A stretch of DNA of 63,406 nucleotides, the filler included, from Hausera hauseri (Eukaryota), in NCBI GenBank assembly GCA_046269625.1. It is 11 parts of 11 records of this genome, joined end to end, with 100 filler letters (N's around TTAATTAATTAA, not from the genome) between each part and the next. Parts side by side here need not be neighbours in the genome. Positions count along the whole stretch, not along the records: positions 48,217 to 53,620 come from JBJURY010261843.1; 10 more parts are not named here. The stretch is one strand, 5' to 3'. Each line of letters opens with the position of its first letter. Position 1 is the stretch's first letter. Below, piece after piece: positions 2,135 to 59,410 of this stretch. The notes under the pieces were generated by a model. It was not told the DNA's origin and ran no database searches. It saw nothing but the letters and a program-made list of their open reading frames with translations. A program made the translations under genes and the position numbers.

Positions 2135-2151
2135 GTCGTTGGTGATTCATT

Positions 2152-2191: not shown

Positions 2192-2221
2192 GGTGAAGCA
2201 TGAACACTGTTTCAGTCAATC

Positions 2222-2673
2222 ATGGTAGCCAATATCAGTTATCGCGGACATGTTACTGAATGTATTAATGTACTGCCGCTTAATCAATGGAAGCCAAGGC
2301 AGTATATCCACAAATGTTCACCGGATATTACATGCATCATATTTCCATCTGAAAAGTGTCGTATTATGGGTTGTCGCAAACCAATCACAAATGATAGACA
2401 TTTACCATTCGGAATTGTCATTGACCAAATTCAATCAATAACGGTAGCGTCTCAGTTAGATTGCTCACCACCATCAATTAATCTGCACAAATTAGCAATG
2501 GCCAATGAAGTATTTATGAGCCTGAACTGTTTCCTGCACTGCGACTAACACAATTCGGCCAGATTTTTGTCAATGTGTTTAGCAGTGGAAAAATTGTCGT
2601 ATTGGGTATTCGGTCAATCAACTATGAGACGACTATTAATCAAATTAAACACCACATAAGTGTTTTTTGCTGA
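2222..2673 (+). pseudogene. TATA-binding-protein-like gene (two TBP repeats), one frameshift near 2510
   Basis: Repeat 1: VANISYRG...ITCIIFPSEKCRIMGCR. Repeat 2, in a shifted frame from 2515: YEPELFPALRLTQFGQIFVNVFSSGKIVVLGIR, matching TBP YEPELFPGL...LLIFVSGKVVLTG. Confidence 0.8.
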
Positions 2674-2741
2674 ATCAAAGTAATATACTCTGGCCAGTGG
2701 ACAATAAATACCATTCTCATATTCGTTCAGATATTAGTACG

Positions 2742-3530: not shown

Positions 3531-3586
3531 ATGTTGTTGTTTTAATTTTCTTCTTCTTCTACAATGAGTATAAATATACATGTGTA

Positions 3587-4078
3587 ATGGACTTTTCATT
3601 AATAATGATAATGAATGATGTACAGATTATCTTAACAGATGAAAATACCTCTGTACTTAGACGTGTTACAGCAAAAAGTGCAGGCCACCATGTGTTTTCC
3701 AATGTCAATTCGACAATTTTGGACAGCAAAATCAAATGTATAACGACCGGGATTCGATTGACGAATCCACCCTGTTACTACGGCCAACTGTTATTGAAAA
3801 GCGGATTGGCAAAGCTCGGACTGACGGTTGTGGGCCGCGGCGTCATTGATTCAGACTTTCGTGGTGAAATTATGGTGTTGCTGGAAAATCAATCCGGGGA
3901 AACGTGTGCTATTTTGAAAGGCAATGCAATCACACAAATTGTTTTTCTTCGCTGTGAAGAGGGGGAATTCAGTGTAATGTCACCGGAACAATGGTATTGT
4001 TTTGTGTCAATGAAACTACACGAAATGAATGCAAAGAATTTGGCTTTGGTGATATGGACAAAACCGACTATGAATTAA
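3587..4078 (+). pseudogene. Trimeric dUTPase (C-terminal motif V frameshifted)
   Basis: TTGIRL, LLLKSGLA (motif II), GVIDSDFRGEI (motif III), ITQIVF (motif IV); TTRNECKEFGFG lies in another frame; TATAAATA at 3569. Confidence 0.88.
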
Positions 4079-20825: not shown

Positions 20826-22136
20826 CTGGAAATAGAATGAACTTTTGTTAATTAGTTAAAATATTGTGGAAAATATTAAATAACTAATAAATAATTAAAT
20901 TAAAATATTGTCGGCTTTTAAATTCAGATTATTTGCTCCAATATTCGTAAGGATTTTGAGTTTCGATAAAATGTTTCATTGGTCATGTGACGTGTTAAAT
21001 AAATTTATTTTAGTATTGTTGGACGGTCAACGTATTTTACAGCTTCTTTATTTAAGGATTATTTTAATTTATTGAATCTTTTATAAGATAAAATAACTGT
21101 TACAGAAGTATACCGCGTTTTGTAAATTGTGTTATGGTTATTTAATACTATAAAAGAAAATTATTTTATGACCTTATTGTTAACAGTAACCAAAACGGCA
21201 ATCAATTGACCTTTGGCAATTAATAACACATGACATAAAATGACAAATAATTTCCTTTGATTGACAAATAATTGAGTGGTCTGTCGAACTATTTGTTTCT
21301 GTGACAATAATATTCTTTCCGTACTATTCGTGTCGACTGNNNNNNNNNNAACAAGTGATCTTTTCATATTATTCCCCAGAATATTTTATATCGATAGAAG
21401 GACTATATAAACGTTTGATTTTCCTGGATACATTTTCTGCATATAACAGTGTTATTCTATGACAACTGTGCGTACCTTTTTAGTTTCTTTGAATAGACAA
21501 TTTGATATTTTCTATAATCATTAAACATTTGTATTTTTGAGTATGTGTTGATTCATTAATTAAGTTTTCTATGTGAATTTTATAAATACGTGTCGATTAA
21601 TTAACCTTTTCCTTAAAAGGGTATAATTAAGAGTTTTAAAATTTCTTTTCCCTTTTGGTATCCTGGTCATATAAAACCGAAAGTATAAAATTCTTAAATA
21701 GGGGTAGCGACGCTATTGTACCTCCTAGTGATCGCGACTCACTAAGGTCAGCTAAATATCACCAAGCTGACCCCACAGGCTGTTTCAAGACTATATAAAA
21801 CTCAAAGTCTAGAGGGAAGGAGAAACCTCACACTACGATTAATTAAGAGTACAAGTTTGAGGTTGCGAATCCAAACTTACTTTCGAACCCGCAAACTTAT
21901 CGTTATTATTAAAATTAATATTATTTTCCTTCTCGTCACCTCAAATCAAAAATCACTTTTGTTCTGAAATGGAATCTTAAAAGCATAATATTATATTATG
22001 TTTTTAAGGAGAGTCGGAAAAGTCAACTAGTTCGACATATCAAGGTGATCCAACTTAAGTATGAATACCAGTCACCTAGTTCACAGAAAAGAGACGAAGG
22101 AGAACAGATTTAGATACTAGTAGTAACAATCAGAAC

Positions 22137-24457: not shown

Positions 24458-25435
24458 CTATTTTAGTACAAAAGTTGTGGTTTCCGTGTGCATAAGTTCC
24501 ATTTCGGGGTGCTCAGTGTTATTGAGTAGGAGGGCATAAGTTTCAGACAGTTTTTCAGGTGTCAGGGCTGTGGAGATAATGCGAGTGGATAAAATACGGA
24601 AACAGGGTATACAACAACAACCACAAACAGCTAAAATAACGAAACAAACACCTGTAGCAATCATGAGAGACATAACGATGCTTTTCCATTGTCCGAACGT
24701 ATTGCTAAACCAATTGGAGATAGGGTCATTTATGCCTGATGCATCTTGCATTTCTTTAGACAAATCTTTGATGCCCTGTAGAGCTCTGGATACTTTACCA
24801 TCGGGTGCTGTGTTATTAGGTATGAATGTGCAACATTCATCACCAATCATGTGACAGACGCCTCCTTGTTCAGCTAAGAGCATGTCTAATGCAATTCTAT
24901 TTTGTACAGCCATTTTGGACGTGGGGCGAAGTTGGTCAGCGAGGCCTTCTATGGCATTACGAGTTAAGTTGGTCAAACGTAAAACATTGTAATGGACAAA
25001 GTTTATTCTTGCTACATTTTTGTTTACTGTCACATAGGGAATTAAAGATTCAAAACCTGCTAATATAGGGTTGGCTAGTTTGTATTCATCAGGTACACCT
25101 CTGGGTACACCAATTGCATCTATGTAAGTTGGTGAAACTTCTGGATCAAAGTCTGTAGATCTTCGCTTCCTGTTATGTGTAGTCTTGGCTAAAGCATGGC
25201 CTAATAAAGTAAGGGGTGCAGCGAGGCGAACTAGAGCGCAGAGTCCTATGGTTTGGGTAGGGATTTTTACAGATAGTCTTTGGCCGCCACAATAGTAATA
25301 TAAACCTGCTCTGGCCCAGGAACCAATAGTCTGGTTGTATTCATTTGTGGTAGTTACCTGGATTGTGGTGTTACACCAGTCGTGGTTTATTTCTCCATAA
25401 TTTTGAATTGGACTAGTTGTAGTAAAATTAAACAG
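24458..25435 (-). CDS. env: ERV envelope (C-terminal SU and TM; 5' part lost)
   Basis: Open frame upstream of the tracked ORF gives furin site RKRR|ST and YIDAIGVPRGVPDEYK; ISD AVQNRIALDMLLAEQGGVC; CX6CC; TM followed by CGCCCIPC. Confidence 0.93.
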   Translation of the reverse strand: MFNFTTTSPIQNYGEINHDWCNTTIQVTTTNEYNQTIGSWARAGLYYYCGGQRLSVKIPTQTIGLCALVRLAAPLTLLGHALAKTTHNRKRRSTDFDPEVSPTYIDAIGVPRGVPDEYKLANPILAGFESLIPYVTVNKNVARINFVHYNVLRLTNLTRNAIEGLADQLRPTSKMAVQNRIALDMLLAEQGGVCHMIGDECCTFIPNNTAPDGKVSRALQGIKDLSKEMQDASGINDPISNWFSNTFGQWKSIVMSLMIATGVCFVILAVCGCCCIPCFRILSTRIISTALTPEKLSETYALLLNNTEHPEMELMHTETTTFVLK

Positions 25436-25468
25436 TGATATCCGCCTATGATTTTGCTGGGTTTAAAT

Positions 25469-29069: not shown

Positions 29070-32000
29070 ATGTGCAATACACAACCCGCAGAATTGCCAC
29101 AATGCCATGAGGAGCTATTCTGGATACAAATTCAATAGAGTGCTCTATTATATTTGTTCTGGATGTGAAGCTGTATGTGATGGAGAATACATGCACTTTT
29201 ACAAAGCTCATATTGCCCACTAGACAGACTTCAATTCAAAACCAAAGAAGGTCATATTTAATGAGCAGCATCCTGCTTTCCTGGAATATTCAAGGGAGGA
29301 GGCAGCAGGAATTCTCCAGGACAACTTGTTGCAGCTGGTGGCCCTTAAGGTGAACTTCAAATTGGAAGCCACCTTCACCATTGTCAAAGGAGAGCTGTCC
29401 AATAGTGCCTTCAAGACAAGGAACAGGCCACTATTGAAATCCTTTAACATTAAGGATTTCATTACAGAAGACTATGCAAGGCTCATCCCTGAAGCCGAAG
29501 AAAGCCAGGACAAGAAGAGCGGTTGGACTTTAGCAACAATAAAGGGGTTACTTGTGTATGTGCACAAGCATTCTCCCATGGGAGGCAGGTCCTACATAGT
29601 GCTTCCTGAATGGATAGTTAAGAAAAAGGCATGTGTCAATGTCCATAATATGACAACATGTGTTTCATGTATGCCATTTCATCAAAACTAATCCAGGATC
29701 AGCGTAATGCTTCCCGAGTTTGGACATATGACAAAGTGCAGTACACATACGACTTCAGCTGTATTTCATTACTGCCGAGCCTAGATGAAGTTGTGAAATT
29801 TGAAAGCGTGAACAACATCTCAATCAACATGTTCGGATTGGAGGAGGACAAATTTTATCCATTACATGTGTGCAAGGAGGAATTGGAGGATCGTAGGGAA
29901 CTGCTCCTGCTAGATGATGGAGAAACGAGGCATTTCATCTAGATCAAGAACTTTGAGCTCCTCGTGGGATCCCAAATATCCAAGCATAAATCAAGGCTGG
30001 AAATATGCAAGAGATGCTTTACCCATTTTAATGGGTAGACAGCCGCAGAAAAGCTGGTGGAGCACAAGACCTACTGTAATACAAACTATTGCATCCGAGC
30101 AGAATTCCCCAAGGAGGTTTACCTGGAATTCAAGGGGTTTGAAAAGATGCAGAAGGTGCCGATTGTTGTCTATTGTGATTTTGAGGCCATCCTTAACTCA
30201 GTTCACAGCTGCAGCCCTAATCCCCAACATAGCAGCACAACAGCATACCAATATCATAAACTCTCATCATATTGTATGTATGCCAAAGGACTGGACAGTG
30301 AACCATTTCTATTTAGAGGGCCAGACGCAGCAGCACATTTTATGAAGAGATTAAAAGACATGGCTCATAGGCTTGAAAACATGCTTCAGCACATGAGGAT
30401 ACAATAATCATATCGAAGCAACAAGAAGATGAATGGCGCAAGGCAACAACATGTTACTTGTGCGACAAGTCATTCACCAAGGATAATTATAAAGTCAGTG
30501 ATCATTGCCATTTTACAGGCAAATATCGAGTAGCTGCATGCAACAACTGTAATCTTTGTTGCAAAACATGTACATATGTGTCTGTAATGTTCCAAAATCT
30601 CACTGGTTATGATTCCAACTTCATTGTTTGGGAACAGGGTAATATTGAGGGGAACACTGATGTCATTCCAAACAGTGAGGAAAAATATATCACCCTCACT
30701 AAGCATGTGAACCGCATTAGACTTCTATTCATAGACAGCTTCCGCTCCATGAGCTCGTCACTGGGTAGTTTAGTGAAAATCCTCCCTGCAGATGAACTCA
30801 AGGAGACGAAGCGGTTCTTTCCCACTGCATTTGACCTCGTCAAGAGAAAAGGCGTGTTCCTGTATGATTATAATACATCATGGGAAACACTGGATGAAGA
30901 AGCATTATCGGACAAGAAGGACTTCTATAGTCAGTTGTTACCCAGTCACATTAGCGATGCTGACTATGATCATGCCCAAAGAGTATGGCAAACCTTCCAG
31001 TGCAGGACAGTAGGGGAATACAGTGATATCTATCTCTTCACAGATGTGCTGCTGCTTACGGATGTCTTCGAAAGCTTCCGGGATGTGACCCTTAAGAGAC
31101 ACAAGTTAGATCCAGCCCATTTCTTTACAGCTTCAGGAATAAGGTGAGCGGCAATGCTGCGCTATACCGGCATAAAACTGCAGATATTGAAGGATTACAA
31201 TGTGGTCCTCATAATTAAATGAGGCATCAGGGATGGAATATGCCAGGCCATTCACAAGTACAGTGAGGCCAACAACAAATATATGGAAGACTATGATCCA
31301 TCAAAGGAATCCTCATATATATAATATCTGGATGCCAACAACTTGTATAGATAAGCAACGAGTAACCCATTGACCTATGGTAACTTCAATTGGGTCAAGA
31401 ATCCTGAAAACATCCCAATATTGTACCTAAATCCCACTGGAGATACGGGCTATATACAGGAGGTGGATGTGGAATACCCACATAACATCCACACAGGGCA
31501 TAAGCAACTGCCATTTCTGCCGGACAGCAAGAAGCCACCAAATGGTAAGCATAAGAAGCTGCTCTGCCATCTCGAAAACATGGCAAGGTATGTAGTCCAC
31601 TACATCAATCTCCAACAGGCCATCCAAAATGGACTCCGAGTCATCAGGATTCATCGGACCCTGCAGGTCAGCCAGTCCAAATGGTTGAATCCATACATAG
31701 ACCATAATACCCAGTTGAGGGCCAATGCCAAGAACGAGTTTGAAAAAGACCAATTCAAGTTATATAACAACTTGGTCTTTGGCAAAACTATGGAGAACAT
31801 CCGGAACCAGATAAATATTGAGCTGGTATGTGACTGGAAGAGGGCAAAGAAACTCATCGCCAAGCCCAACTTCCACAGCAGCACAATCTACACGGAGAAT
31901 CTGATGCGCATCCATATACTCAAGATATTACTTGAGTTCAACAAGCCTATATATGTGGGCATGTCCATATTGGATCTATCCAAGACCTTGATGTACGACT

Positions 32001-32524
32001 TTCATTACAACATCATGGCCCCTGCATTCAAGGAGTTCCAGCTAATGTACATGGACACGGACATTTTTATATACCAGATCCATACAGATGATATCTTTGA
32101 AAAGTTTGCAAAATTGAAGCAGTATATAGATACCTCGGACTATCCGAAGGATCATCCAAATTACTCAATCGTTAACAAGAAGGTCCTCGGGAAGTTTAAA
32201 GACAAGGCGAATGGGAAGATCATCACCCGTTTCGTGGCGTTGAGATCAAAAATGTACGTCATCGATGTAAGTGGTCAGGTAAAGAATCAGGCCAAGGGAG
32301 TTCAAAGGGCAACATTAGCTAAAGACATTGGCTTTGGAGATTTTGAGAGAGTCTTGCGGGAGCAAACTCACATAGTCAGCGAGATGAAAAGGATCCAGTC
32401 ACGGGAACATCATATTGCCACAGTTGCGTTGCAGAAGAAAAGTCTTGACTGGTTCGATGGCAAGAGGCACATTCTTGAAGACAAAATCCACACACTATCT
32501 CATGGGCATGTGGCATTATTGTAA
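29070..32524 (+). pseudogene. Protein-primed family B DNA polymerase of a Polinton/adintovirus, fragmented
   Basis: SGWTL; VYCDFEA (ExoI); DHCHFTGKYRVAACNNCNL; QNLTGYDS; FIDSFR; KGVFLY; YLDANNLY; KLYNNLVFGKTMEN; YMDTD; LRSKMY; AKGV. Confidence 0.96.
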
Positions 32525-33428: not shown

Positions 33429-33528
33429 NNNNNNNNNNNNNNNNNNNNNNNNNNNNNNNNNNNNNNNNNNNNTTAATTAATTAANNNNNNNNNNNNNNNN
33501 NNNNNNNNNNNNNNNNNNNNNNNNNNNN
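33429..33528. other. Artificial contig spacer
   Basis: N44-TTAATTAATTAA-N44. Confidence 0.99.
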
Positions 33529-36500
33529 GCAGCTGAGCTTGTGTGAAAATGGGCTTAAAATTACTGGAGCTAACAGATCTGGAAATAAAATCAGCAATTA
33601 AGTTATTTACACCGTTAATGTGTTTGATCTCAAAATTGAACGTCGACAAGTATGAGATCTGTCGTTCTTGTCGAGTAGATGGGTGTTTCATTCCTATGAT
33701 ATTTATTAGGGCTTTATGGTCAGTTTGTATGGTGAAACATCGAGCAGTGAGTAAATGTGAGAAGTGTTTCAAGGCAATAACTATCGCTAGTAGTTCTCGG
33801 TCGAACGTGGAGTATCTAATTTCAGGGGGTGTTACTTTTCGTGAAAAGAACTCCAGTGGCTGATCTTCACCTTTATGGATTTGATGAAGTACTGCGCCCA
33901 CAGCAGTGGTGGAGGCGTCTGTTGTGAGAATCAGCTGTGCATCTTGTTTGGGGAAAGCTAATATTTCGACGGTTTTTAAACCTTCTCTTAGCTTTTCGAA
34001 TTTGTAAAATAGTTCAGGGATCCATTGTATTGGCCGATGTCTTTTTTTACTACTGAGGTGAGCAAATGGTACGGTAAGTTCGGAGCAGTGCGGCCTATAC
34101 TTGTGAATGAAGTGCAAAGTGCCCAAAAAGCTCCTCATTTCTGTTGTTGTTCGAAGTAGTTGCACGTTTTATAGGGCTTCAACTCGATCGTGCTGAGGTA
34201 AGTGACCTTCTGAAGAAATGATGTGACCAAGGAAATTTGTAAGCTTCTGGAAAAAGAGACATTTGGCAAAATTAATCTGCAGGTTATGCAGGATTAGGCG
34301 TTGAAAGATTGATCTGAGGTGTTCTTCGTGTTGTTTGGTTGAGGAAGAAACAATTAATATGTCATCGATGTAGGGGTGAGAATATGGAAAATCTGAACGA
34401 ATAGCATCGATGTGACGTTGAAAGGTCTGCGCGGCGTTCCGTAGTCCGAATGACATATATAGATATTCGTAAAGACCGAAAGGTGTTGTAACGGCGGTTT
34501 TTTCGATATCTTCGGGTTCCACCGAGATTTGGTGATAAGCCTTGGTGAGGTAAATAGTTGAATAGATTGTGGTGAAATTGGGGCGATGTAATATGTCTTT
34601 TATGAAGGGTAAAGGATACGCGTCCATTACAGTCAAAGAGTTTAGCTGCCGGTAATCACCAGAATGACGCCACGATCCATCCTTTTTTGCACTACATGTA
34701 AAGGAGAAAAAATGGAAACTTTGATCGATGTACAATTCCGAAGCGTTCAAGATCAGCGAATTCGGCTTCGATCGCCTGTCTGCGTCTGGACGAAAATGGT
34801 CGTACCTTTTGACTAATAGGCCTTTGATGTTGCCTAATGATGTGATGGAAAGTACTATTTTCTGGTTCTGAAAGACCTATCTTTCTTAAGTACACGAGCA
34901 CATGACATAATAAGGTACTGTTGGCGATTTTTCGGTAACTGTGAAAAATCGAGCGGAATGGTTGTGTCATGAATAGCTGAAATTTGAAAGGTACTCGGTG
35001 GCTTAACATCTGTACGTTTATTAGATAGACTGAATGTGCCGAAAAATGGATCAGAGGTAGTAATTCTATTCAATGTGTGTATTATTTTAAAGAAATCGCA
35101 CTTGTCGTTGTTTAATCTTGCTTTGTTGTCAGCATCGTATTTGATTAATTTACGAAATATATTGTGGTTATGAGAAATTGCTGGTTTAATAGTCTGTATT
35201 TTCAAAATAGACTTCCTTGGGCCGTTCGTTCGTGTGATGGTTGAGACATTATTCATCAGTTCGGTTTGATTTTTCTTGATGATGTTTTTCAAATATCGGT
35301 GTTTACAATCCACAAGGAGATTGTAATGCGACAGAAAATCGGACCCAAGGATAGCCGTTTGGACATTTGCGACTGTAAATGTCCAATGAAATTCAGGGGA
35401 GAAATTTGGCAAGGTGAAGGAAAGTGTAGAAGTTCCGAAAACATGTAACGGTTGTCCGGAAGCTGTGAAAAGAGATTTCACTTTAGATGTAACGTAGTGG
35501 ACAGTAAAGGTGAGTGGTAGAAGTGATATTGCTGCACCTGTGTCGATAAGGAAGTTTATATGTTGGGGTCTCGGGGCGATGGTAGAAGCTTTTAATGTGA
35601 ACACAGCAAAAGAAATTTTTCGGCTATTAGCAAGTGGAGAAATGCCTTCGCCAGTGCGTGCCGAAAGCTCTGGCAGCGACATTAATTTTTGAAAAAGGAA
35701 AAACAGGGCGGCTGTTAGAAGGCAGATTTGTGCGTTCCCCATTTGCATGATAAAGTTTGTTGTTAAAAGTGCAACCAGAGATGCGTCTGCGTGCATTGTC
35801 TGAATTTTGCATGATATATGCAAATGACGTTGTCTGTTTGGTATTTTTGATTATAAAATTTACGCCCTAGGTGACATTTTGTGCATTATCATCAAACCTA
35901 CCGTGGTAATAGCAAATCAGTGACCGTCCCGTTGAGGATGATTGATTATGAGATGCGGAACGGTTACGGTCAGGAATGAAAGCCCCCCGTCGAGTCAATG
36001 AAATCTCGTTCAGTTTATTGCTTATGTTACTTATTTTTGTTTGTAGGGCCGCATTTTCGGCTCGTAGTTGATTTAACTGCTGTTCGAATGTAGCGTTGTT
36101 GGTAGTAACGGCTGCAGAAATGACTGGTTGGGTGTGTACATTCAAAACCTCATATGTTTTGTCTGCCACTTCGGCCATTTTATCAAGCGTTGTCGATTCT
36201 TCGACGACAGTAAATAAGGCCCTAATTTGTATGGGCAATGCGTTTAGGAAGTAGCGTCGCAAAAGATCGGCGTTATGTTGTTTAATCACGCCAAGTGTTT
36301 GAAGTTGAACGAGTGAAGTTCTAAGGAAATCTAATGGTTTTGGGCGTTCCCATAGCATTGTCGTTGAAGAACCGATGAATTATAGAGTCCATAGATAATT
36401 CGGTAAGCTTTAAAACGGTATTGTAAAGATAGTTGTATGGATCTGGTTGATGAAAGATGTCTAGCAAATCATAAATGGACGTTTTTACATTTGGCGGTAA

Positions 36501-36990
36501 AAGACAAAGTAGGTTATGAGCTTTGGTTAGTGGATCAATGATGTTGTTAAACTGCAGCCAAAGTTTGAGAAAGCTAAGCCAGGTTTTGCTGGATTTTTCG
36601 TGATTGATAAAATACTCCGTGCACTGAGAAGAAGTGTGTTTGGCTGGCGGGACGAAAGATGTATAACTGGTGAAAGTAGATGGTGTGGTTACGGTCGTTG
36701 CTTTCTGGTGAAAAGCAAAGTGTGATTTTTTAGAGGTAGTTTTGTCAGTGGTACCAATGGTTCGTAAAGAGTCCATTCCATCACGTATGCGCAAATGTAT
36801 ATGGATAACGAGATATGGGGTCGAAGAAGAAAAAAATTGCGGACATTGGCATTAACGAGTAGTACATTATTAAGGGTTAAGTAAGAGTCTAAAAGAGCAT
36901 TAAAATGTTGTACGTATTTGCGTAAGTAAAGTTAGTCTATATGGTATATCGTTTTGTGCACCAGTATTTGTGAATTACTTAATAAAAAGT
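33529..36990 (-). mobile_element. Ty3/Gypsy LTR retrotransposon (Ubl-Gag, PR, RT, RNase H), decayed
   Basis: Gag with CYYH.RF knuckle; FLIDTGAAISLLP; DYRQLN, AYHQI, FGLRNAAQTFQR, YIDDILI; TTDAS, YSTFDRELLA, TDHK. Confidence 0.95.
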
Positions 36991-39892: not shown

Positions 39893-39992
39893 NNNNNNNN
39901 NNNNNNNNNNNNNNNNNNNNNNNNNNNNNNNNNNNNTTAATTAATTAANNNNNNNNNNNNNNNNNNNNNNNNNNNNNNNNNNNNNNNNNNNN
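39893..39992. other. Artificial contig spacer
   Basis: N44-TTAATTAATTAA-N44. Confidence 0.99.
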
Positions 39993-42900
39993 ATGTTTAA
40001 TATCAAAATTAAATGTCGACAAGTATGATATTTGCCGTTCTTGGCGTGTGGAGGGGTGTTTCATGGCCATGATGTTGAGTAAAGGCTTGTGGTCAGTTTG
40101 TAGAGTGAAATGACGAGCGACGAGTAAGTGTGAAAAATGTTTGAGAGCGAGAACGATTGTCAATAGTTCTCGGTCAAACGTGGAGTATAGAGTTTCAGGT
40201 GCGGTTAGTTTGCGAGAAAAAAATTCCAATGATTGGTTTTCTCCTTTGTAGATCTGGTGGAGTAAAGCGCCTACATCAGTGATTGACGCGTCAGTGGTGA
40301 GGATAAGCTCTGTATCAGGCTTGGGAAAAGCAAGAATATCTACAGTTTTTATGCCTTCGCGTAGCTTGTCGAATTTGTCAACCAATTCAGGTGTCCACTG
40401 GATTGGTTGATGTTTTTTCCGCCCGTTAGGTGTGCCAATGGAGCTGTTAATTCCCAGCAATATGACACATTTATGTACAAAGTGTGCCAAGGAAGCTATG
40501 CATTTCGGTGGTCGTACATGGCAATTGGATGTTTTTAAGGGGTTCGACTCGATCTGACTGGGGGGAATGACCGTCTGGTGTGATGATATGACCTAAGAAG
40601 TTAATTTGTTTTTTGAAAAAGTGGCATTTGTCAGGACTGATTTGTAGATTATGATGGTGGAGACGTTGAAATATTGCGCGGTGTTCTTCGTGTTTCTTGG
40701 TCGAAGATGAAACGACTAGAATGTTGTCGATATAAGGGTATGCAAACGGGAAATCTGCAAGAACTGAATCAATGTGCCGCTGAAAAGTTTTTGCGGCATT
40801 CCGCAAACCGAATGGCATGTATGGATATTCATAGAGGCCGAACGGAGTAGTTACTGCGGTTTTTTCAATGTCTTCAGGTGCTACCGGTATTTGATGGTAG
40901 GCTTTAGCTAGATCAATGGTTGAATAGATGGTGGTTGAATTAAGGCGATGCAAAATATCCTTAATTAGTGGTAAAGGATATGCGTCCATGATGGTCAAGT
41001 TGTTAAGCTGTCGGTAATCAGCGCATGGTCTAAAGGTACCGTTTTTTTTGTACGACGTGTAACGGTGATGACCAAGGAGATTTGGAACGGCGTACGATGC
41101 CGAAACGTCCGAGCTCGAGAAAATCGGCTTTTACGGCCTGTCTACGGCGAGGTGACAGAGGCCGTACTTTTTGGCGTATTGGACGTTGGTGCTGTGTGAT
41201 TATATGGTGTAAGGTGCTATTTGCGGGAGTAAAGGAACGGTCTTTCTTAAGTACTCGTTGGCATGACTTGTTGATGAATTGCTGTAACGTTGTAGGTAGC
41301 TGTCAGAGATTCGGTGAAAGTGGTGGAACGGTTTGGGTGGTAGTGGATGCAATGTTTGAGTTGTTAGGTGATGTGCAGTCAAGTGGAATTTGGTGCAAGA
41401 TGGTTGAGTTAAAAATGGTGTTGGCTGAGGTATTTTCGTTGAATGAGGTAGCGTTGGTGGCAGTACCACACTTATCGACATCAAATCTCGATCGTATATT
41501 GGTGTTATTGTTTAAGAATTTCCGAATTGAATTATTATTACAAAAATTCGAATTATTGTTATAAAGAATCGAATTATTCGGAGACTTTTTTAAGATTGAC
41601 TTCCGCCTCACGGTCGACTGCGCGGTAGTCGAAACGCTATTTATATGTCCAGAAATGTCGCCAGTGGTGTTTTTCCTCAAATATTTTTGGCTGCAGTCAA
41701 CCAGTAGATTGTAGTGCGAGAGAAAGTCAGATCCAAGGATGGCCGACTGGACGTTAGCGACTGTGAACGTCCAGCAAAAAGATGTAGAGAAATTTGGTAG
41801 CGTGAAAGACAGTGTATCCGTGCCCGAGCTGTGCAACGGCTGGCCTGAAGCAGTATATAAAGACTTGATTTTGAAAAGAGAGTTTTGTGTAGGAAAGGTT
41901 TGCGGTAATAGAGAAATGGCTGCCCCTGTATCAATAAGGAAGTCAAGAGATTAAGTTGTAGGGGCAGTAATTGCGGCTTTTAGCGTGAAGACTGCGAAAG
42001 AGATATGTCGGCGTTTAGAATGTGAAGGAGTGCCTTCGTCAGAGATTGCTGTGACTTCTGGCGGCGAAGTTAGTTTCTTGGAAAAGAAGAAGTGGGGCGA
42101 TTGTTTGAAGTGAAGGCAGTACGTCTATCGTTCGTACTGGATTTGAATGTGCAGCCGGGAATACATTTACGTGCTTGATTTTTGAATCTTGCATGGTAAA
42201 TGCAGATAACGGTGTGGGAGGAAAATTTACTGTTGTAAAATTCGCAACCCAGGCAGAATTTTTGAGCATTTGTGTTGAATCTGCTGTGGTAGTAGCAGAT
42301 CGACAAACGCGCAGGCGATGGTGAGCGGTTTTGTGACGTAGAACGGGCACGGGAAGCGGCAAAACCCCTCGTCGGGACAAAGAAAATTCATTTAATTTAT
42401 TACTTATGTTGTTGATAGTTGCCTGCAATGCAATATTTTCAGCACATAGCTGATTTAGCTGCCGTTCTATGGGCGTGTTAGTTGTTTGTATGTCGTTAGC
42501 AGCAACTGCTGCTGAAACTGCGAGTTGCGAATTTATGTGGAGGACATCATATGCCCTATCGGCCAATTCGGGCAATCTTTCAAGCTGTGTGGAGTCTCCC
42601 ACTACGGTAAGAAGAGCTCGGATTTGGATAGAAAGGGCATTCAGAAAATAATGGCGTAAAAGATCCGGGTTATGTTCCTTAGTTACTCCAAGAGTACGCA
42701 AGTGTGCTAGTAAAGTGCGTAAGAAGTTACTGGGTTTTTGCGTGCCCAGTGCATTTTCGTTAAAGAAACGCTGCATTATGAAGTCAGTGGAAAGTTCGGT
42801 CTGTTTTAAGACAGCGTCGAATAGTTGGGTATAGGGATCAGGGTGCTGAAAGATCTCGAGCAAGTTGTGCATTGAGGCTTTTATTGAATTGGGAAGAAGA

Positions 42901-43418
42901 TAGAGCAAGATATGGGCTTTAGATAAGGATTTGGTGATACCATTAGATTGTAGCCAGAGTTGGTGGAAATGAAGTTACGTTTTACTGGGCTTTTCATTAT
43001 CGATGAAGTAGTCAGTGCAATGTGTAAAAGTATGAACTGGGTTTTTGTTGGAAGAGTTTGCGTCGGTTAAAATAGGTGGGTTATTTGGTCTTGTGTAGTA
43101 GAGAATGGATATTGGCTTTTTTGTGGCCGTTGTATCCGTGGTGTCAGTTGTTGGTGGGAAATTCATTCCACCACGGATACGGAGATGTATCTTGAAGGAA
43201 GCTCGATTTGGAAAAGATAAAGTTTCGTTCATGTGTATGATGGTACCGTGATGGCTAAGATAGAAATCAGTGGAACCAAGGATAGAAGAAAGGTGGGTTT
43301 GAAAGGTGGAAATATGCGGGTGTGTAGTATGGAGGGTATATATGTAAATGTTGTTACGAAAAAAGAGAATGGAGGTGGGGAAAGTGGTGGGCCTGAGGGC
43401 GTGATTTAGAGCCGACAT
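39993..43418 (-). mobile_element. Ty3/Gypsy retrotransposon of the same family (Ubl-Gag, two CHCC knuckles, PR, RT, RNase H), decayed
   Basis: HLRIRGG|M; QKPSNFLRTL; CYYHSRF..AQKFCLGC and CIYHARF..ARKCIPGC; FLIDTGAAIS; IDLAKAYHQI; YIDNIL; TTDAS; DRELL. Confidence 0.95.
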
Positions 43419-44609
43419 GGAAGGCGCCCCGACCAACCGGCGCAAGGTTGGCAGCCGGGATCTCCGCCTCGGCGGGGCGAGCAGCAAAATACGGGGTATC
43501 CGAATTTCCCCTTGAAATGCGCAAGATATTCCGTAAGTACATTTGCGTGTTGAGTTGGTATTGCAAGTTTTGTAGCGGTAATAGTCGGTTGTGGAACGAT
43601 TGGAGTTAGCGCAGAGGGGTTAATAGGTGTAATGTCAGGTAAATCGGAGACTTAAATCTTCTAACAGCTGTCAATTTGTATATACGTGAAGGAATTACAG
43701 GCGTTATTTGGATAAATAATTTATACTGTTCGATGATATTTTGTGTTTGGTAAATATGTTCTAACAGATGTTAACTGCTTGAAAAATATTTCCTCATCTT
43801 TATGAAGTCGATCTGTGGTCGTGTAGCCTATCTTGTCAACAAATTGGTCATGATTAGTGTGAACCCAGCAAGGTAAATCAAACTTATCGTTGGAATGTTT
43901 TGAATTTTTTAATAAATTACTTGATAAGCTGGTTGAGACATCTAATTGTACATTATGTTTTTGCTAAAACCTTTAATTCACTTTTTTAGTAAAGATTGCA
44001 TGAGAATATTTCCGGCCATAAACTTGTGGGGAACCTGTCTGACACGTATTGATACATATTCAGACATTTTAAATCGCGTATCCTTTCGTTTTCTAAGCAA
44101 TGTAATAATCGTCTTACCGATTAGATTGTCGCCAGACTCTTTGTTCGTCAGCGAACATGATAGGTCATCGCAGTCTCCTCAGCCAATAGTTCACATGAGA
44201 ACTGCGATCACCAAACGAAATATTCACATCTGGGCTGTAATCTGTGGTGATCGCCTGCAGCGTCTGAACGGACAAACTCGCCGATTTCCGGAGCCGTCTC
44301 AAATGGTCAATCGTTGGTAAATCGGCATCGACGTTTCTGTCGATGAGGTCGTCAATTTATGTAACGGTCGATTTAAATAGCGTTTACATTCCATGAGTAA
44401 AATGAAATTGGTTCTGTTGGAATTCAGTTTCAATCCGTACTGGTTCAACGTTACGGTCAGCGTGTAAATATTTGTCAGGAGATGGCACCGGATTTTGACG
44501 TACCATCCGGAAAACCAAAGCATTCTATCGCACAGAAAATGCGTAATTGTGGTATAAAAGAACTTCTGTTGTCATAATCGTATGGATCTAATCCATACTA
44601 CCGCATTCC

Positions 44610-48216: not shown

Positions 48217-48495
48217 ATGGGAACCGGTATATATCGAAGTAAAATTGTGACAATTATGTCCTATCGCTTATATGAAATAATGGTAATGAATGGTGTAAAT
48301 CCGAATCAAGAAGAGGTATAGAGAAACAGAAATTGCCACAATAGTGTTAAAGGCTAATGTAGAAAGATGGGTAAAATGTAGAGTTGGATTGATTAAGAGT
48401 TTTATTCAAACGACAATACATGAATCGGTGCCAGTTACACAACAACAAACAGAATATCTTCCGTCCCAATACCCAGANNNNNNNNNNAATTATTA

Positions 48496-50388
48496 TGGTT
48501 AACTAAAGTTATACCCATACTCTTTCTGTTTAGTCTTATGCCAAAACACTATCAATTATTGCTTAGGATGGCAGTCAAGCCAAGGAAAGCCAAATATACT
48601 CCTTACTGGATTTAGAAAATGCACATTTGCCAACCCAACGTCACTAACTAAAAAACGGATAAGGAATATTATGTCGGAATTTGTAAAAATAAAAGTGAAA
48701 GAATGTTTTGTTCTGAAAAGTCACTTTCATTTTATTTGTGGATACTGGTATGGAAACTCAGCTATAGTCGAACCAACTACTGCATTTAAACCACTCCTGA
48801 TAAGTAAAGGATGTGCATAGAAGCTTTTGTAACAAAAGAGATAAATATTGGAAGTATCCGACGCAAGGCTCAGAAAAGAAAAATTATCAACAGAAAAATT
48901 TTTATGGCTGGAGCAATATATACAACGGGATATTGCAAAGGCGAATCATATAATATTAATGGTGAAATCTTGCACAATATTGTAGCCACTGAGGGTTATC
49001 AAGTCGAGTTGAGGGAATACGATGCTCTTTTTGAATTATCATCAGGAAAAATGATTACATTACCCGAATGTGTTTATTATTATAAAGAATGTGAAACCGG
49101 CAAATCAATCATGTCGTATGAAGTAAACAAGGATCAGTGTCAGTTAGCCTTGCTGCGAACTGGAAAGTTCAATGAAACAAAAGGAAAAATGTGTAAAGAA
49201 GAAATATCAAAAAGCAGATTAGATGGAGCATCAGATACAACGGAAACAGCAACTATAGTGTACTAAACAGACTCAAGTGAAGGGATGAGATTTAAAATAG
49301 AAAGTGACACAAAAAATGCAATCAAATAGTATATCGAACAAACTACAAAGGTATATTTTTATCAACAACTAAAGTAGTTGAAGCAAAAAGAAACAGATAA
49401 ATTGGAAGTGAAGCCGCATTTATACTTCGACAACATGATCAATTTTATCTACAACATCCAACAAGAAAATATTTATGCAATATATAGAGAAATAATACTA
49501 AACGACTTCAAACTGAATATAGAAATAATAAGAAATCGGATATATCTGTCAGCAATAACGGCTGGAATAATAAAAGATCCAACTGAATTGCCCGATGCAG
49601 AAGGAAAGTTTGCGAGAACAATGGTTGAAGCCCTTGTAACTCTTGAGTGTGCAAGAGTAGCAGTTAAATTAAGACCGATTAAAGATTGTACCATGGAACT
49701 ACCTGTTCGGTATAAAGAAAAACCACGTTTCTTACAACCAATTACTAAGATATTGTTAGATCCTATGGAAAAACCGCTCATACATCAAAATTGTACATAT
49801 ACGATGTCACCAACATTTAGGTTGAGCAATGATTACTGGATAAGAATGCCCGGCAAAGAGGTCACCTCACCTAGAATTAGTTTAATTAATTGAAAGACCG
49901 AACAAACATAAGCCGTTGACAGACCTAGTAAAGATAAGTGTTTATTCCAAACAAGATATGGAGAATCATAGGAGAATAATGATGTTCCGCAACAGAGACA
50001 GAAAGTCTTAACAGAAATAACTATGAGGGTGTTATCCGAACATACTGGTATAGCTAATTGGGACAACTTGATAGGACCTGATTACGCTAAGAAAATTGCT
50101 CAAGATATATTTGCAACTGCATGGGGATGGTATATGTGGTTTGTTCAGTTTAATTCAGGATGGCTAGGATTTTATTATATCTTTGCCTTTATAAAAGCAA
50201 TCCTCACAATGGTAACAAAAGGATATTGTATAAAACAAACTGCTGGTTGTACATAGAGAATTATTTATGAGTAATATAATTTGTAGGAAGTTGTTTTCTG
50301 ATAAAGAAAGATGCAGAATGACAGCAGAAAATAAAAATAAAGAGGAAACAGATAAAGATGAAGATGAGCCCCTCCAATGAATAAACAA
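48496..50388 (+). pseudogene. Chuvirus-like (class III, gB-type) envelope glycoprotein, fragmented
   Basis: Signal peptide, IIA*DG...YSLLD; FICG; GYCKGESY; ECVYYYKECETG; EALVTLECARVAV...DCTMELPV...RFLQPITKIL...NC...PTFRL...W; C-terminal TM region. Confidence 0.8.
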
Positions 50389-50596
50389 AAGAAAGCAGAA
50401 CGACAGTCACTCCAAAATACAAAGAAAACATGGAGCTTAATTAGGGCCCGAAGCAAAAAGCGAAGAACGATGTTTTCCGACATCCCACAGATAAGGAGAT
50501 GGAATGAATATCCAACGGAACAGCAGCAATTAATTTCTCCTAATGAATATATAGACATACATTGTTCAAGCGATAGATAATTATGACTCAAAACAT

Positions 50597-51290
50597 ATGA
50601 AACTCACATTTTGTCCATCAGCTCCAAAGGAAGCTTTGATAACTAGTATAGATGAAGGTAAAGTAATACCTCGTCCAGTAATATGGATGGATGGACATCC
50701 TATTACTGCTATAATTGATATGGGAGCATCTGATTCCATGATTTCACGAAAGAAACTACCAGAACCATTGAAGAAAAAGCTACAAAAACCAACAGAAGAT
50801 ATTACAAATATAGGAGCTTTTGGAACTAAGGTACAAGTAAGAGATCTGATACAATGTCAAACAAAAGTTCTTAATCAGAAATTCGAACAAGAATTTATAG
50901 TAGCGGACGAATTAGTGGCAGAAGCCATACTTGGCTGTGATGAACTGGCAACATTAAAAGATATGTGCATATATCTGGAAACCCAACAAATCCAGCCGTT
51001 TCGAAAAACAAAAAAAAGAAATAGTGTCTATTAAGGAAGATGTATTGATACCGCCCAGAATGGAAATCGTGCTCAAGGCTGTAGTACAAGGAAGAGATGA
51101 AGGGGATGTTTAAATCGAGTCTAGTATAACCTTCATGGATAAAAATGAACTATGGATAGCCCACACTATTGACAATATTCGAGAACGACAAGTAATTGTT
51201 CGATTAGCTGATGTCTCAAGCAAACCCAAATTTCTCAGGAAAGGCACAAGAACCGCCTGCGTATGTGCCATAAAAGACAGGTAATAATGC
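50597..51290 (+). pseudogene. Retropepsin (Gypsy-type protease) followed by the dUTPase-like spacer typical of Gypsy Pol
   Basis: AIIDMGASDSMI (DTG variant); EAILGCDEL; then VLIPPRMEIVL...VIVRLADVS..PKFLRKGT. Confidence 0.8.
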
Positions 51291-51647
51291 AACGGGAGCC
51301 ATTATTTCCAGTGCAAGAATTATCCGAATTTATAGAAAAACACCGACAATAACCACAAGTAGAATATGGAATAAGATTTGAGGATGAACCTGTGAACAAA
51401 TTAAAAGATCACCTCAACAAAAATAACATACATTTTTACACTACTCATTGACTATATTGTGTGGAAATTACTGTATTGCATGGCTTATAAGCCAATATGT
51501 GTAATGTACAAATATATGTATTTTTATGAAAACTATCCCTTGTTCTTTATACTCGTTAAAGAATACAAATGGAATATTAGTTTCTAAAAATACTATAACT
51601 GTTAAAAACAAAAGCAATAATGACAAAAACTAATATTTATTAAAAAA

Positions 51648-52106
51648 CTATAACAACTCATCAGAACCTAACCATGAATAGTAATAGTACATATTGACCA
51701 AATTTGTTATTGTCGAATAAGATATCTGCTTGCGGTCTGTATTGTATACTTCCACCATCTGTCGTACTGTTGCGCAAGGCTTACACTCATACAAGCCCAA
51801 GTTGATGAAACAATTTAGACATTGGCGGTGATTTTTGCAGCAACCCACCACTGTATATCGTACTTCGTTAGTCCAGCACACCACACATCTATAATCTGTT
51901 ACTTTCCTCAGCTCGGAAATGGGGCATGATTCTATTTTTCGTATTTCATTGTAAATTTTGCACATTTCACTGGAATTGCTGCACATGGGGCAAGTTGGCT
52001 GTTGCTGGAACTAATCCACTATGCAATTTAGACAGTGGTAGTGAGTACAACCACGTAAGCGAACGTTGAATCATTTTAACTTTTCTCGGCAGGTTGAACA
52101 GATCAT
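51648..52106 (-). pseudogene. Double RING-finger protein, virus-like compact gene
   Basis: MICSTC...GCTHYHCLNC...CPMC, then CVVC...GCCKNHRQCLNC...CKPC; TATAAG ~30 nt upstream. Confidence 0.7.
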
Positions 52107-52510
52107 TTTAGAAACAAATTTGTCATATTTACGACTTCTTATAGTAACATTTAGCCAATAGAAATTAAGACACACGTGTGTGCGTTCAACTAATATACCT
52201 AGATTTTTTATAATATATGTATTGATGTTTTAATGTATAAAGTATACGATTAATACTTAGCAAAAAACTAAGAAATAGGAATTAAAGGTATAGAAAATAA
52301 TACGTGTATGGGTGTAGAAATTAAAAAACAATTTCTTACGTTAGAAACCAATGATGTACAGAAATGCGATAAGACAGATACAAAAATGTATTCCACAGTC
52401 GGATGTTTAAGAATATCAGTTTTCAGACTGTTATTTAATAAAGTTTTCAGACTTTCTTATTTAATAAAATTTTGTGTTAATTTTATAAGTGTTAATTTAT
52501 AAATGAAAAT

Positions 52511-52762
52511 ATTAGATGGATATTCATTAGGTCCACAAAACATCAACAAAACACATTTTGTCAATTATTAGATGGATATTTATTAGGTCGATAGAACATC
52601 AACATTTTGTCAATTATTAGATGGATATTTATTACGTCGATAAAACATCAACAAAACACATTGTCAATTATTAGATGGATATTTATTAGGTCGATAAAAC
52701 ATCAATAAAACACATGTCAAATATATGGATATTTATTAGGTTGATAAAATATCAATAAAACA
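52511..52762. repeat. Tandem repeat, ~5 copies of a 50-57-bp unit
   Basis: ATTAGATGGATATTTATTAGGTCGATAAAACATCAACAAAACACATTGTCAATT. Confidence 0.9.
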
Positions 52763-52779
52763 AAGGCAAAAAAACACTA

Positions 52780-53620
52780 ATCATAAATTGTGGCCCTAAA
52801 GAGGACCGGTTTTTCCTTCTCAAAATGTGGCTCTGAAGAGGACCGCTTGTACATTCTCAATTAAATGTACAATTGGTAAATGTACAATTTTTGTACACAT
52901 TACCAATTTCCACCTTCTGCAGATCTGTCATTGTTCCGACATCCATCATCACATTCGCTTCTGCGACATTGGCTTCAACCTCCATTTCTGTTACAGCTAC
53001 GATCGCCTACACCTCCCTTTCGGCCATATCCACGATCGCCTGTACTGCAACTTCTGCCACGTCCACATTCGTCTGCACTTCCATTGTTAATATGTCAACG
53101 TCCGCCTGCACTTGCATTTCTATTGTGTCCACGGTTGCCTGGACTTCCTTCTCTGCTGTTGTTTGGACATTAGAAGCAACTGTCCCCGTCTTCCCGACTA
53201 CGTTTTCTTTACGTTTCATTCTCATAATTAGTTTCCCTTGCTCAAAGAGTCTGCTCTGCAGGTGTTCAATCAACTGATCTCTTTCCCTCAGCAGTTTATC
53301 AACCTCAGCGAACCTGGCTTTCAACTGTCGAACTTCATCTGTATCTTCCGTTGGCTTCGGCTTCGTTTGTATCTCTAAACGTATGTTTAGATTTTTGTGG
53401 AATTTCGACGCCTTCAGATTGTCTATTTGTTGTGAGACAATTTCTCTGCCCATATCCACTTTAAGATTTAGCCGACGTCGTTTCCGAACCTCATACTCGT
53501 TCTGCCATTTTCCTTTGATTTTTTGGGTAATTTCCCTTCTATCCTGTGTGCAATTAGCTTTCTAAATTGCACTAGCCAACTGTGATACACTCATTTTTGT
53601 GAGCCTTGGTTCACCCGTTT
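52780..53620 (-). pseudogene. Hypothetical coiled-coil protein with 11-aa VQ(A/T) repeats, disrupted
   Basis: ORF 53007-53459 shows a coiled coil then EVQATVDT/EMQVQADVD/EVQTNVD repeats continuing in another frame. Confidence 0.4.
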
Positions 53621-53720: not shown

Positions 53721-56382
53721 AAAGATATTCTTCATAGCCTAAACAACACCAATACCTATTCTACCATTGATCTGCACAAGGCCTACCATCAAATTCCTGT
53801 TGCACCTGATGACATTCCAAAAACTTCTGGCATCACACCATTTGGTTTTTGCGAGTATATCTTCATGCCTTTCGGCCTACGTAATACATCTCAGACCTTT
53901 CAGCGCCACATTGACACCGTTTTTTCTAGTCTCGATTTTGCTCATCCATACATAGATGACATATTAGTCGCTTCCAGCTTCATTAAACAACATCATATGC
54001 ATCTTAGAATCATTTCCCACAGATTGCATCAAAGCAACCTGCAAGTTAATTTCGCCAAATGCAATTTCTTCGAGAAACGCGTCAACCTCTTAGGCCATAT
54101 AATTACTCCCGAAGGGCATTCGCCCAAGCCTGATTGTTTACAACAATTAAAAAATGTGACGCTGCCAACTACTACTACCGAAATGAGGAGCTTTCTAGGG
54201 ACATTGCATTTTGTACACAAATACGTACCACACTGTTCCGAACTAACGGCACCTTTCGCACATCTTTCATCTGGGAAGAAAAGATAATTAATCCATTAGA
54301 CTCCCCATATAGTAAACTAATTTGATCGCCTTCGTGAAGGTCTGAAAACTGGAAATCTTGGCCATTCCAAAACAAACCGCTGAACTAATATTAACTACCG
54401 ATGTCTCAACCACAGCAACTGGTGCGATATTACACCAAATATACAATGGCTTCGATGAACCATTAAAATACTTTTCCCAAAAGCTCACGCAACCGGAAAG
54501 CCGAGACTTAACATTCGATCGTGAATTCTTGGTTGTAGTTCTAGCGGTAAAGCATTTCAAGCACTTGCTTCTTTCACGTCAATTGACCATCCAAACCGAC
54601 CATAAGCCTCTACTTCACATAATGACTTTGAAAAATCCCTCACTCAGACAAGAACAACAGATATCATACCTGTCGACGTTTAGTTTTTCAATGAAATATA
54701 TTTCAGGCACCGAAAATTTAGTAGCGGACTTACTTTCGCGATCGGTTAACTCTATTACAGTTCAGACAGTTCCCTCCTCTGACGTCCTGAGAAGCAATCA
54801 GCCATCATCTGACATTCTCCAAGCATTTAAATCTGTTGAAATCATCGATGGCATCGCTTATGACACTTCCAACTCGATCAACAAGAAAATCATTCTTGTT
54901 CAATTGCTACAAAAGACATCTTTCAATCACTTTCACTCTTTTCGTCATTCGGGTTCAAAAGCCATATTTCGTCTATTGCAATACCACGTTGTATGGCCAG
55001 CTATGCGTACCGATGTACAGATCTGGGTCAAGGGATGTGTAGCATGTCAACAATACAAGGTTCATAAACACCTCAAACCACTACTCTGCCACTTCCCGTG
55101 TACTTCTTGTTTGAAAACCGTGCATTTGGATCTTGTGGGTACTCTACCTTCCGACAATTGTTATCAATATATCATATTCATGATGGATCGTGCTTCTCGC
55201 TGACCGGAAGCCCTTCCGCATCGACCAACCAACACTGACTCAGTATCTGATGCATTTATCAAGATATGGGTCAGCCGTTTTGGCTCACCACGTTATGTCA
55301 TAAATCTCTTGTAAAGAACTTGGGGATAGTCTATCTCCATACGACGCTGTACCATACCCAAGCAAATGGTCTTCTGGAGAGATTTCATCGCACCATAAAG
55401 ATTTCTTTAAAAATCCTGGCAAACAGCAATTATAATTGGACCTCAATCCTTCCTCTTGTCCTACCCGATTGGTGCAATACGCCATCCACCACCACAGGCT
55501 GTGCACCAGCGGAGGCTCTCTTTGGGATACCAGTTTGTGCACTATTTGAGCTCTCCAATCTCAATGAAAGTCCGCCAGATGAAGTTAATCGTGCGGCACA
55601 GACTTACTTTGCTGATGTCCACTCAAATACCTTCTGCCATCTTATAAATAAAGAAAAATCTTATATCCCAGAGGACTTATACTCAGCCAAGTTTGTATGG
55701 CTGAAGAATACGTCACCTTATGGTTTTCGGACTCAATACGATGGCCCTTACAAATTACTGAACCTTTCCTTGTACAACGCTACTATTTTACGCAACGGCA
55801 AACCTCAAAACGTATACATCTTTAATCTTAAGCCAGCATTCTTCGTTGACGACGACCAGGATAAGAGCCTTGTTTCAAATACAACTTCTAACTTCTCTAC
55901 CATCGAGCCGTCACATAATTTCCTTGATGATTTTAATCTTTCGCAGCATTCACGCTCGCGTCACAATCAGCTCTCTTTACTTCTGTCATCATTCACTGCT
56001 CCCTCACTATCTGCCTCTCCGTCGTCGCCTGCACATACATTAATCATTTCATCTTCATCGCACGATTTGCTGTTATCTCTAGTCTCTTCTTTTTCTCGTG
56101 ATCCTTTTCCCTTTTCAGCTTCTTCTCCATTTTCACCTCTTCATGAAGCACCCTCCGGCACCACAAAATCCAGAGTACCTCTCCCTCAAACAAGTCCAGA
56201 AGCACCAGTAACATCTAACAGGTCACGCCAAGCAACATTTTGTACTTACAGCAGGGAGAAGTTAACAGATGGAATTTAATGCCTAACACGTACCAAAACG
56301 GAATAAATACAAGTTCTTCTTTTTCCTATTATAATCTCCATTTATTCTTCTCTTTATAGTCTTCATCTGGCCACAGGGGGGA
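53721..56382 (+). mobile_element. Ty3/Gypsy pol (RT, RNase H, integrase) of the same family, with PPT
   Basis: YIDDIL; TTDVS; HSFRHSG...CVACQ; VHLDLVG; QANGLLERFHRTIK; YDGPYK; PPT AGGGGGGA followed by TGTGG at 56383. Confidence 0.95.
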
Positions 56383-58734: not shown

Positions 58735-59410
58735 AATTGGCTGGATGCGTTACCCATTGTGCTATTAGCATGGAAAAACTCCAAACACTAGCACCGATGC
58801 CTCTCAGGCACAACTACTATTTGGTGCACACCTCACATTCCCACAAGATCTGGTGAGCAACGAGGAAGTAACTTCAATTCCAGCTCTCAACCAAGCCCGG
58901 AAGCATTTCCTGTCCATAGACACGAACCCTGCATTCCTCAACAATCACAAGGAACCCGTCATGCCAAAGGACCTACAAGATGCATCCTTTATGTGGCTAA
59001 AAAGCCAACAGAGACACGGTTTTGAACCGTACTATACGGGCCCCTACAAGCTCATAAAAATCCCTGAGCACAACGCCAAAATACTGCGAGACAATGAGGA
59101 ACATATAGTCCACTTGTCGAATGTAAAACCCGCATTCGGCTATCACAATTCCGATACCGAAGATACTATCGAACAAAACGCACCAAGCATGTCAGAAGTA
59201 GACAAGCTTCGGGAAAACTATGAAAAAATTTATCCATTCAATATAAGCACTCCCATAACATATGACACAACCCCGGTCCAAACGGAAACACATATTACCC
59301 CGACGCCCGTACTTCCAGAAACGGAACGTACAACAATACGTAACCACACTCCGGCCGCACCGGTATCAAGTCCCACCAGGAGTGCATCCAAGATACCACG
59401 AGTCCACTAA
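58735..59410 (+). pseudogene. Gypsy integrase C-terminus (GPY/F), same family
   Basis: WLDALPIVLLAWKN; MPKDLQDASFMWLK...GFEPYYTGPYK...VHLSNVKPAF parallels 55266-56279. Confidence 0.85.

Follow-up and report, generated by a model that had tools for sequence, protein, structure and literature searches.

The analysed window is a stretch of 63,406 nucleotides, filler included, from the Hausera hauseri assembly GCA_046269625.1, in which short contigs are joined by ten 100-nt N linkers. One of these contigs (JBJURY010261843.1, positions 48217-53620, 5.4 kb) carries the remnant of a retroelement that begins at the first base of the contig, 48217. All recognised modules lie on the plus strand and comprise, in order, the C-terminal half of a predicted Bcl-2-fold domain, a hydrophobic segment, an envelope glycoprotein (Env), a retropepsin (PR) and a spacer which in related elements separates the protease from the reverse transcriptase (RT). 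The recognisable element ends within 51276-51567 (plus strand), and RT, RNase H (RH) and integrase (IN) are absent from the contig; tblastn with the regions of the relatives running from behind the spacer through RT-RH gave a best E of 0.62. No LTR-like repeat was found in the contig, whose sole self-matches are those of a short satellite (52507-52762), in agreement with the sequence-only reading that no LTR separates Env from PR. As the contig begins inside the element, the lack of an upstream Gag and of a 5' LTR is uninformative. Env, PR and spacer stand in three different reading frames and frame changes are also present inside single domains, which points to decay. With its stops, its frame changes and its missing RT and integrase, the window copy is dead.

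The reading frame of the Env (48543-50268, plus strand) changes several times, and the main frame is interrupted by 7 stops. Pfam PF24664 (Monjiviricetes_fusion) matched three separate Env pieces (E 1e-05, 3.5e-13 and 1.2e-11) and also the main frame (48808-50268) once each of these stops was replaced by X (E 9.4e-30), which bears out the gB/chuvirus-type (class III) glycoprotein first proposed for this locus. A membrane anchor lies near 50161-50217 (plus strand). In the closest long relative, P0049, a single ORF encodes capsid, CCHC, linker and Env and stops inside Env. Eight blocks of P0049 align in the same order with 48217-49488 at 50-82% identity, the range also found per block for Env, and this collinearity runs across a 10-N assembly gap (48478-48487; P0049 residue 772 = 48463, residue 786 = 48490), the hydrophobic segment and Env. 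The remaining polyprotein Envs are 23-31% identical to that of the window over 430-530 aa, and the window modules are collinear with the intact ORFs of these relatives. The hydrophobic segment before the Env ectodomain (48490-48546, plus strand) is a hydropathy peak and shares 58% identity over 19 aa with P0049 786-804. Since such a segment lies just ahead of the Env N-terminus in every long relative displayed, we infer that it acts as an internal signal sequence or signal anchor.

The position of the window Env was determined in a quick tree of 40 rows, for which a span filter dropped 37 of the 76 Env-matching proteins, P0049 and P0058 included. The window row has a long branch, since part of it is frameshifted and was read in one frame. 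It falls in a 24-row group (SH-aLRT 97) together with all 20 polyprotein-labelled rows, and 16 stand-alone glycoproteins, of chuvirus size, fall apart from this group. A stand-alone integrated chuvirus G (about 650 aa, with a chuviral G grouping) was rejected as the identity of the window Env, because the latter groups with the polyprotein Envs, albeit on a long branch of a quick tree, and because it is preceded by the upstream domain of a Gag-Env ORF.

This upstream domain occupies 48217-48463 (plus strand), is cut by the contig start and contains one frame change and one stop. It matches P0049 690-772 with 76% identity over 37 aa (690-726) and 60% over 48 aa (725-772), with an E of 4e-26. 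A related helical domain is found just before the Env signal in six relatives (alignment A1), and two near-copies bring the number of carriers to 8 of 79 proteins. A profile made from any five A1 segments recovered the sixth (E 7e-20 to 4e-03), four of the six matched Pfam Bcl-2 (best E 2.7e-05, under the curated cut-off), and in a comparison of the A1 profile with PDB sequences the best 60 rows were all Bcl-xL or A1. For the model of the P0049 domain (pLDDT 77), the top 35 structural rows were all Bcl-2-fold proteins (best Z 13.4, rmsd 3.0, 129 residues aligned), compared with Z of 5.3 or less against unrelated structures. With the same model, the PDB rows listed by Foldseek were only Bcl-2 proteins, with a best E of 4.2e-03, none reaching 0.001 or better. 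From this modelling, the pre-Env part of P0049 is predicted to fold as Bcl-2. A Bcl-2-like profile built without P0049 did not detect the window pieces, whose tie to the family runs through P0049 only, and an atlas search with the Bcl-2-like stretch returned no usable match. The window part corresponds to the region from the BH1 to the BH2 equivalent. Of the six A1 segments, five retain the GGW motif of BH2, and none has the NWGR motif of BH1. In anti-apoptotic Bcl-2 proteins the NWGR motif forms the BH3-binding groove, and its absence means that a BH3-binding anti-apoptotic action is not assured. On the Env tree the carriers of the domain are not one clade (4 changes, a number as low in 55 of 500 shuffles), so that a single gain followed by losses is indistinguishable from non-detection.

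Between Env and the protease, 50269-50626 (plus strand) is a decayed stretch corresponding to the Env cytoplasmic tail and the Env-PR linker. Compared with the Gag regions of 6 relatives, it gave a best E of 0.38, and the view that no recognisable Gag intervenes was therefore sound. The Env match stops at 50268 and the protease match starts at 50627-50681, which leaves a gap of about 360-415 nt; the retropepsin does follow the glycoprotein on the same strand, at a larger distance than the 0.2-0.3 kb originally estimated. About 150 codons separate the end of the Env match from the catalytic Asp of the protease, and this distance is 83-343 residues in 11 relatives, of which 9 have 83-158. The retropepsin itself (A2 aspartyl protease, 50627-50983, plus strand) is an open frame with a degenerate catalytic motif. 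Pfam RVP matched 50555-51034 with an E of 3.4e-09, the match covering approximately 50681-50959, and the best matches of the window protease are the proteases directly before spacer and RT in P0005, P0006, P0069, P0073 and P0076. The window PR and spacer together best match the PR-spacer pair which directly precedes RT in the relatives.

The spacer (51024-51275, plus strand, one stop) was aligned by hhalign with profile A3, built from the PR-RT spacers of five relatives, at a probability of 97.5% and an E of 5.7e-12, which confirms the Gypsy-type spacer that had been noticed behind the protease. A structural model of the A3 spacer (pLDDT 88) had as its top 22 structural rows only dUTPase/dCTP-deaminase folds (best Z 9.6), with Z of 4.9 or less for unrelated folds. 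By sequence, the spacer had no Pfam match, its profile found no dUTPase among PDB sequences (1 match, E 0.44), and its comparison with a true dUTPase ORF elsewhere in the window was not significant. Its dUTPase-type fold is thus apparent from the fold search of a predicted model only, and not from sequence.

To collect relatives, one Env piece served as query for a full phmmer scan, which gave 68 proteins, and cluster look-ups plus two profile searches raised this number to 79. A word-index protein search of longer proteins, also with an Env piece, had accepted 0 of 170 candidates. Twenty-three are of 740 aa or more and 22 of these have an Env, several being cluster mates and hence not independent; the 740-aa filter favours fusions, and the Env tree was used as a check on that bias. 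Among these 22 proteins, a protease motif follows Env in the same ORF in 17, RT is reached in 8 and IN in 7, capsid/CCHC (Gag) marks precede Env in 9, and in no case does RT or IN stand ahead of Env. Intact relatives with the glycoprotein followed by PR/RT in one ORF exist, and the canonical gag-pol-env order, named beforehand as the outcome that would refute the reading, was seen in none of the long relatives. P0003, P0076 and P0078 have the Bcl-2-like domain, Env and PR in one ORF, and P0005 and P0045 have CCHC-Env-PR-RT-RH-IN in one ORF. The Pol of the relatives carries RVT_1, RT_RNaseH, Integrase_H2C2 and rve, in the order PR-RT-RH-IN in 7 of them. As predicted from these sequences, the order of the element is Gag-...-BCL2-like-Env-PR-dUTPase-like-RT-RH-IN, and neither deletion nor nesting accounts for the placement of Env before PR. 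The enveloped retroelement of permuted order which had been suspected is consequently retained in so far as Env stands ahead of PR in a Ty3/gypsy element, and rejected as to the order IN-Env-PR-RT, as integrase follows RT. The suspected single polyprotein is seen as a single ORF in the intact relatives, the window copy being too broken to display one. Taken together, we estimate at roughly 90% the probability that the genomic copy on contig 48217-53620, truncated and decayed as it is, derives from a Burro-like element of the Ty3/gypsy group (Metaviridae) with GAG-ENV-POL arrangement.

Several observations were made on the relatives beyond this order. More than one retropepsin motif per ORF is present in P0069 (8 motifs, 7 Pfam stretches), P0011 (5), P0006 (3), P0003 (3), P0078, P0079, P0009 and P0014, some of the extra motifs being placed after integrase or before Env. 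No paper on gypsy elements with repeated proteases came up in a literature search, and the account of Burro in PMC6431247, in the parts devoted to that element, is silent on them. P0005, P0006, P0024, P0069, P0073 and P0076 have C-terminal extensions of about 500-1,600 aa after the integrase tail, in which no Pfam family was found beyond extra protease motifs. The sequence of P0005 is that of an animal-type retroelement, yet it is recorded as a hypothetical protein from a bacterial MAG, most probably as a result of host contamination. Env-bearing relatives were sought among viral, metagenome and prokaryote genome contigs and none was found; 4 loci from a contig search matched only RT/IN, none with Env, and were set aside.

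Other copies were sought in public sequencing data. One run (X1), possibly from the source organism, holds 26% of the sampled words, and no RNA run was listed as holding them. X1 contigs cover all 30 bins of the region, mostly at 80-95% identity, including every bin across the Env-PR junction. About 40-70 contigs are present at many Env and protease sites, a depth which is not a copy number, and the summed depth is far lower after about 51570. This coverage fits a diverged multi-copy family predicted to end near 51570. Directly after the element, 51570-52100 (minus strand) holds the remnant of a small ORF, in which two RING-like units rich in cysteine are recognised (zf-RING, E 8e-04), and five copies of a satellite of about 52 nt at 52496-52762 have by far the deepest X1 coverage.

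Besides a few eukaryotic host genes, the other contigs of the window contain gypsy elements and Polinton-like genes. Ordinary gypsy elements (Gag-PR-RT-RH-IN) lie at 33473-36851, 39945-43619, 53721-56279 and 58769-59410, and tblastx between them and the Env-PR element gave no match. Polinton-like remnants are found at 1640-4078 and 29224-32524, with an ATPase-like ORF and a dUTPase on one contig and pieces of a protein-primed DNA polymerase B on another. An intronless ORF of 764 aa with a peptidase M60 domain (18561-20855, minus strand; E 1.8e-50) is possibly a host gene. The contig at 22237-28969 carries a retroviral TLV_coat env ORF (24458-25462, E 2.6e-13) and the tail of a non-LTR element; this contig looks fish-like, and the window may mix organisms.

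Three other explanations of the locus were weighed. The sequence-only reading had seen in the 260 nt ahead of Env a weak likeness to an integrase C-terminus, from which it derived an element permuted to IN-Env-PR-RT, with integrase ending just before Env. The first codons do bear a loose likeness, by eye, to a W-x-G-P-Y-type motif. However, the same bases are those which align with the pre-Env region of P0049, and a profile of the integrase tails of 6 relatives gave E of 0.16-0.55 on the three frames of this stretch, whereas it found, as a control, the two real gypsy integrase tails of the window (E 1e-06 and 3e-04). As integrase moreover comes after RT in all 7 relatives which reach it, this permutation is scarcely credible. 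It is also improbable that the junction is a chance one, in which deletion, nesting or misassembly brought the protease of another element next to either an integrated chuvirus G or the 3' env of an element with the canonical gag-pol-env order. Such an origin would be compatible with a decayed copy whose modules are in different frames, on a short and repeat-rich contig, and with the fact that no close relative covers the passage from Env to PR, since P0049 stops within Env, and no single contig piece among those listed for X1 bridges it. Against it, the window Env groups with the polyprotein Envs and apart from the stand-alone G proteins, the Bcl-2-like domain of a Gag-Env ORF precedes it, the distance from Env to protease lies within the range of the intact fusions, the contig is without LTR-like repeat, and diverged X1 contigs are present in every bin across the junction, although this is one run, possibly of the source organism.

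The remaining explanation accepts the same architecture and places Env and Pol in separate or frameshift-linked ORFs, rather than in one in-frame polyprotein. The three different frames of Env, PR and spacer in the window could be read in this way, as could P0008, P0018 and P0049, which stop in or just after Env and may be partial or broken. In the relatives, by contrast, Env continues in frame into the protease in the 17 of 22 long Env-bearing proteins cited above, and P0078, which is 82% identical to P0008, does proceed past Env into the protease. The frame changes within single domains of the window copy, furthermore, are those of decay. Separate ORFs are for these reasons very improbable, and the copy is best regarded as the remnant of a Burro-like element with one polyprotein.

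How such a polyprotein might work can be proposed from its predicted topology. The chain would be threaded through the ER membrane twice, similarly to the polyproteins of alphaviruses and flaviviruses: the internal hydrophobic segment would send the Env ectodomain into the ER lumen, Gag-Bcl-2 would be kept cytosolic, held by this internal signal, and the Env anchor and tail would return PR-Pol to the cytosol. Host signal peptidase and the protease or proteases of the element would then cut the chain and free its parts, Gag and Pol having in this manner been tied to the Env-bearing membrane for budding. The Bcl-2-like protein would be left tail-anchored, as cellular Bcl-2 proteins are, and in this location the modelled domain would probably damp host cell death or innate signalling. 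The missing NWGR motif suggests that the domain may act on signalling rather than on BH3 binding, as is the case of some poxviral Bcl-2-fold proteins.

A wider proposal can be put forward tentatively and is, in our opinion, rather doubtful: that Burro-like enveloped metaviruses extend beyond planarians, the host here being non-dugesiid, and that their Bcl-2-fold domain without NWGR is a working viral Bcl-2 using the Env signal as its membrane tail. The domain without NWGR is kept in at least five divergent families. Were the proposal true, these elements would be complex retroviruses equipped with their own modulator of cell death or immunity, and the arrays of 2-8 retropepsin motifs in several families would serve to cut the giant polyprotein. 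If the host is not a planarian, the known range is extended.

The nearest known system is Burro/GYPSM1, the giant gypsy-like LTR retrotransposons of planarians (Arkhipova & Yushenova 2019, PMC6431247), described as one ORF of about 4,900-5,100 aa with Gag, accessory domains, BCL2-like, Env, PR, dUTPase-like, RT, RH and IN. According to that description, Burro has an Env with matches to mononegavirus fusion proteins, an internal region of up to 25 kb, accessory AIR1/Smc/MATH/BIR/ankyrin domains and a planarian (Dugesiidae) host, and its decaying fragments with stops and frameshifts are known from one planarian species. Env before Pol, in the order BCL2-Env-PR-dUTPase-like-RT, was thus already published for Burro in 2019 (PMC6431247) and is not new. 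The four window modules follow the Burro order, a likeness drawn from the published description and not from Burro sequences. Env between gag and pol is recognised in the window Env before PR and in the Gag upstream of Env in P0049; the BCL2-like domain directly before Env is recognised in the window via P0049 only; and the dUTPase-like domain between PR and RT corresponds to the window spacer. Ankyrin repeats are also present in P0069 and P0078, the only relatives in which they were seen. The elements differ in that the region of P0049 from Gag to Env is short (about 800 aa), with no Pfam match to MATH, BIR or Smc, and in that the window copy is without Gag, RT, IN and LTRs. To this description are added structural support for the 'BCL2-like' motif as a predicted complete Bcl-2 fold without the BH1 signature, and a set of unannotated relatives among metagenome proteins.

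Similar folds are known from viral Bcl-2 proteins (canarypox CNP058, EBV BHRF1 and ASFV A179L), to which the P0049 domain model is alike with Z of 13.4-11.8, and from the poxviral Bcl-2-fold signalling inhibitors A46, A52, B14 and N1 (Z 6.7-5.5). Unlike these viral proteins, the domain is embedded in a retroelement polyprotein, and it has 5-17% identity to solved structures. Compared with anti-apoptotic Bcl-2 proteins, the fold and BH2 are kept and the BH1 NWGR motif is lacking (0 of 6 segments). A literature search joining Bcl-2, gypsy and viral Bcl-2 found no close match, the Burro review PMC6431247 having surfaced otherwise.

A second group of comparable elements is that of the GAG-ENV-POL errantiviruses with HSV/gB-type ENV in Platyhelminthes, Bryozoa and Nematoda (Chary & Hayashi 2026, PMC13524379). 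As described there, a gB-type Env with signal and anchor lies upstream of a Ty3/gypsy POL, an arrangement also found in the window and its relatives. By eye, the Env of these relatives is far nearer to the Platyhelminthes C1a group than to the nematode groups of that work, and the Env piece of P0058 is close to Smed_errantivirus_4 (PMC13524379). A full member of this group would have intact ORFs between LTRs, with a tRNA primer site. Decay and the loss of both ends mark the window copy, and its contig has no LTR-like repeat. The terms 'Bcl', 'Burro', 'polyprotein' and 'in-frame' do not occur in the main text of PMC13524379, although its figures and figure supplements may bear on this; the Bcl-2-like domain is accordingly not annotated in that main text, and the present analysis connects these GAG-ENV-POL errantiviruses with Burro. 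Finally, Anakin and other BEL/Pao or gypsy elements possess a chuvirus-derived glycoprotein (Dezordi et al. 2020, PMC7642597). As far as these elements are described there, they share with the window the same Pfam class III fusion protein family on an LTR element, whereas in the relatives of the window the Pol is of Ty3/gypsy type and Env is fused to it ahead of PR.
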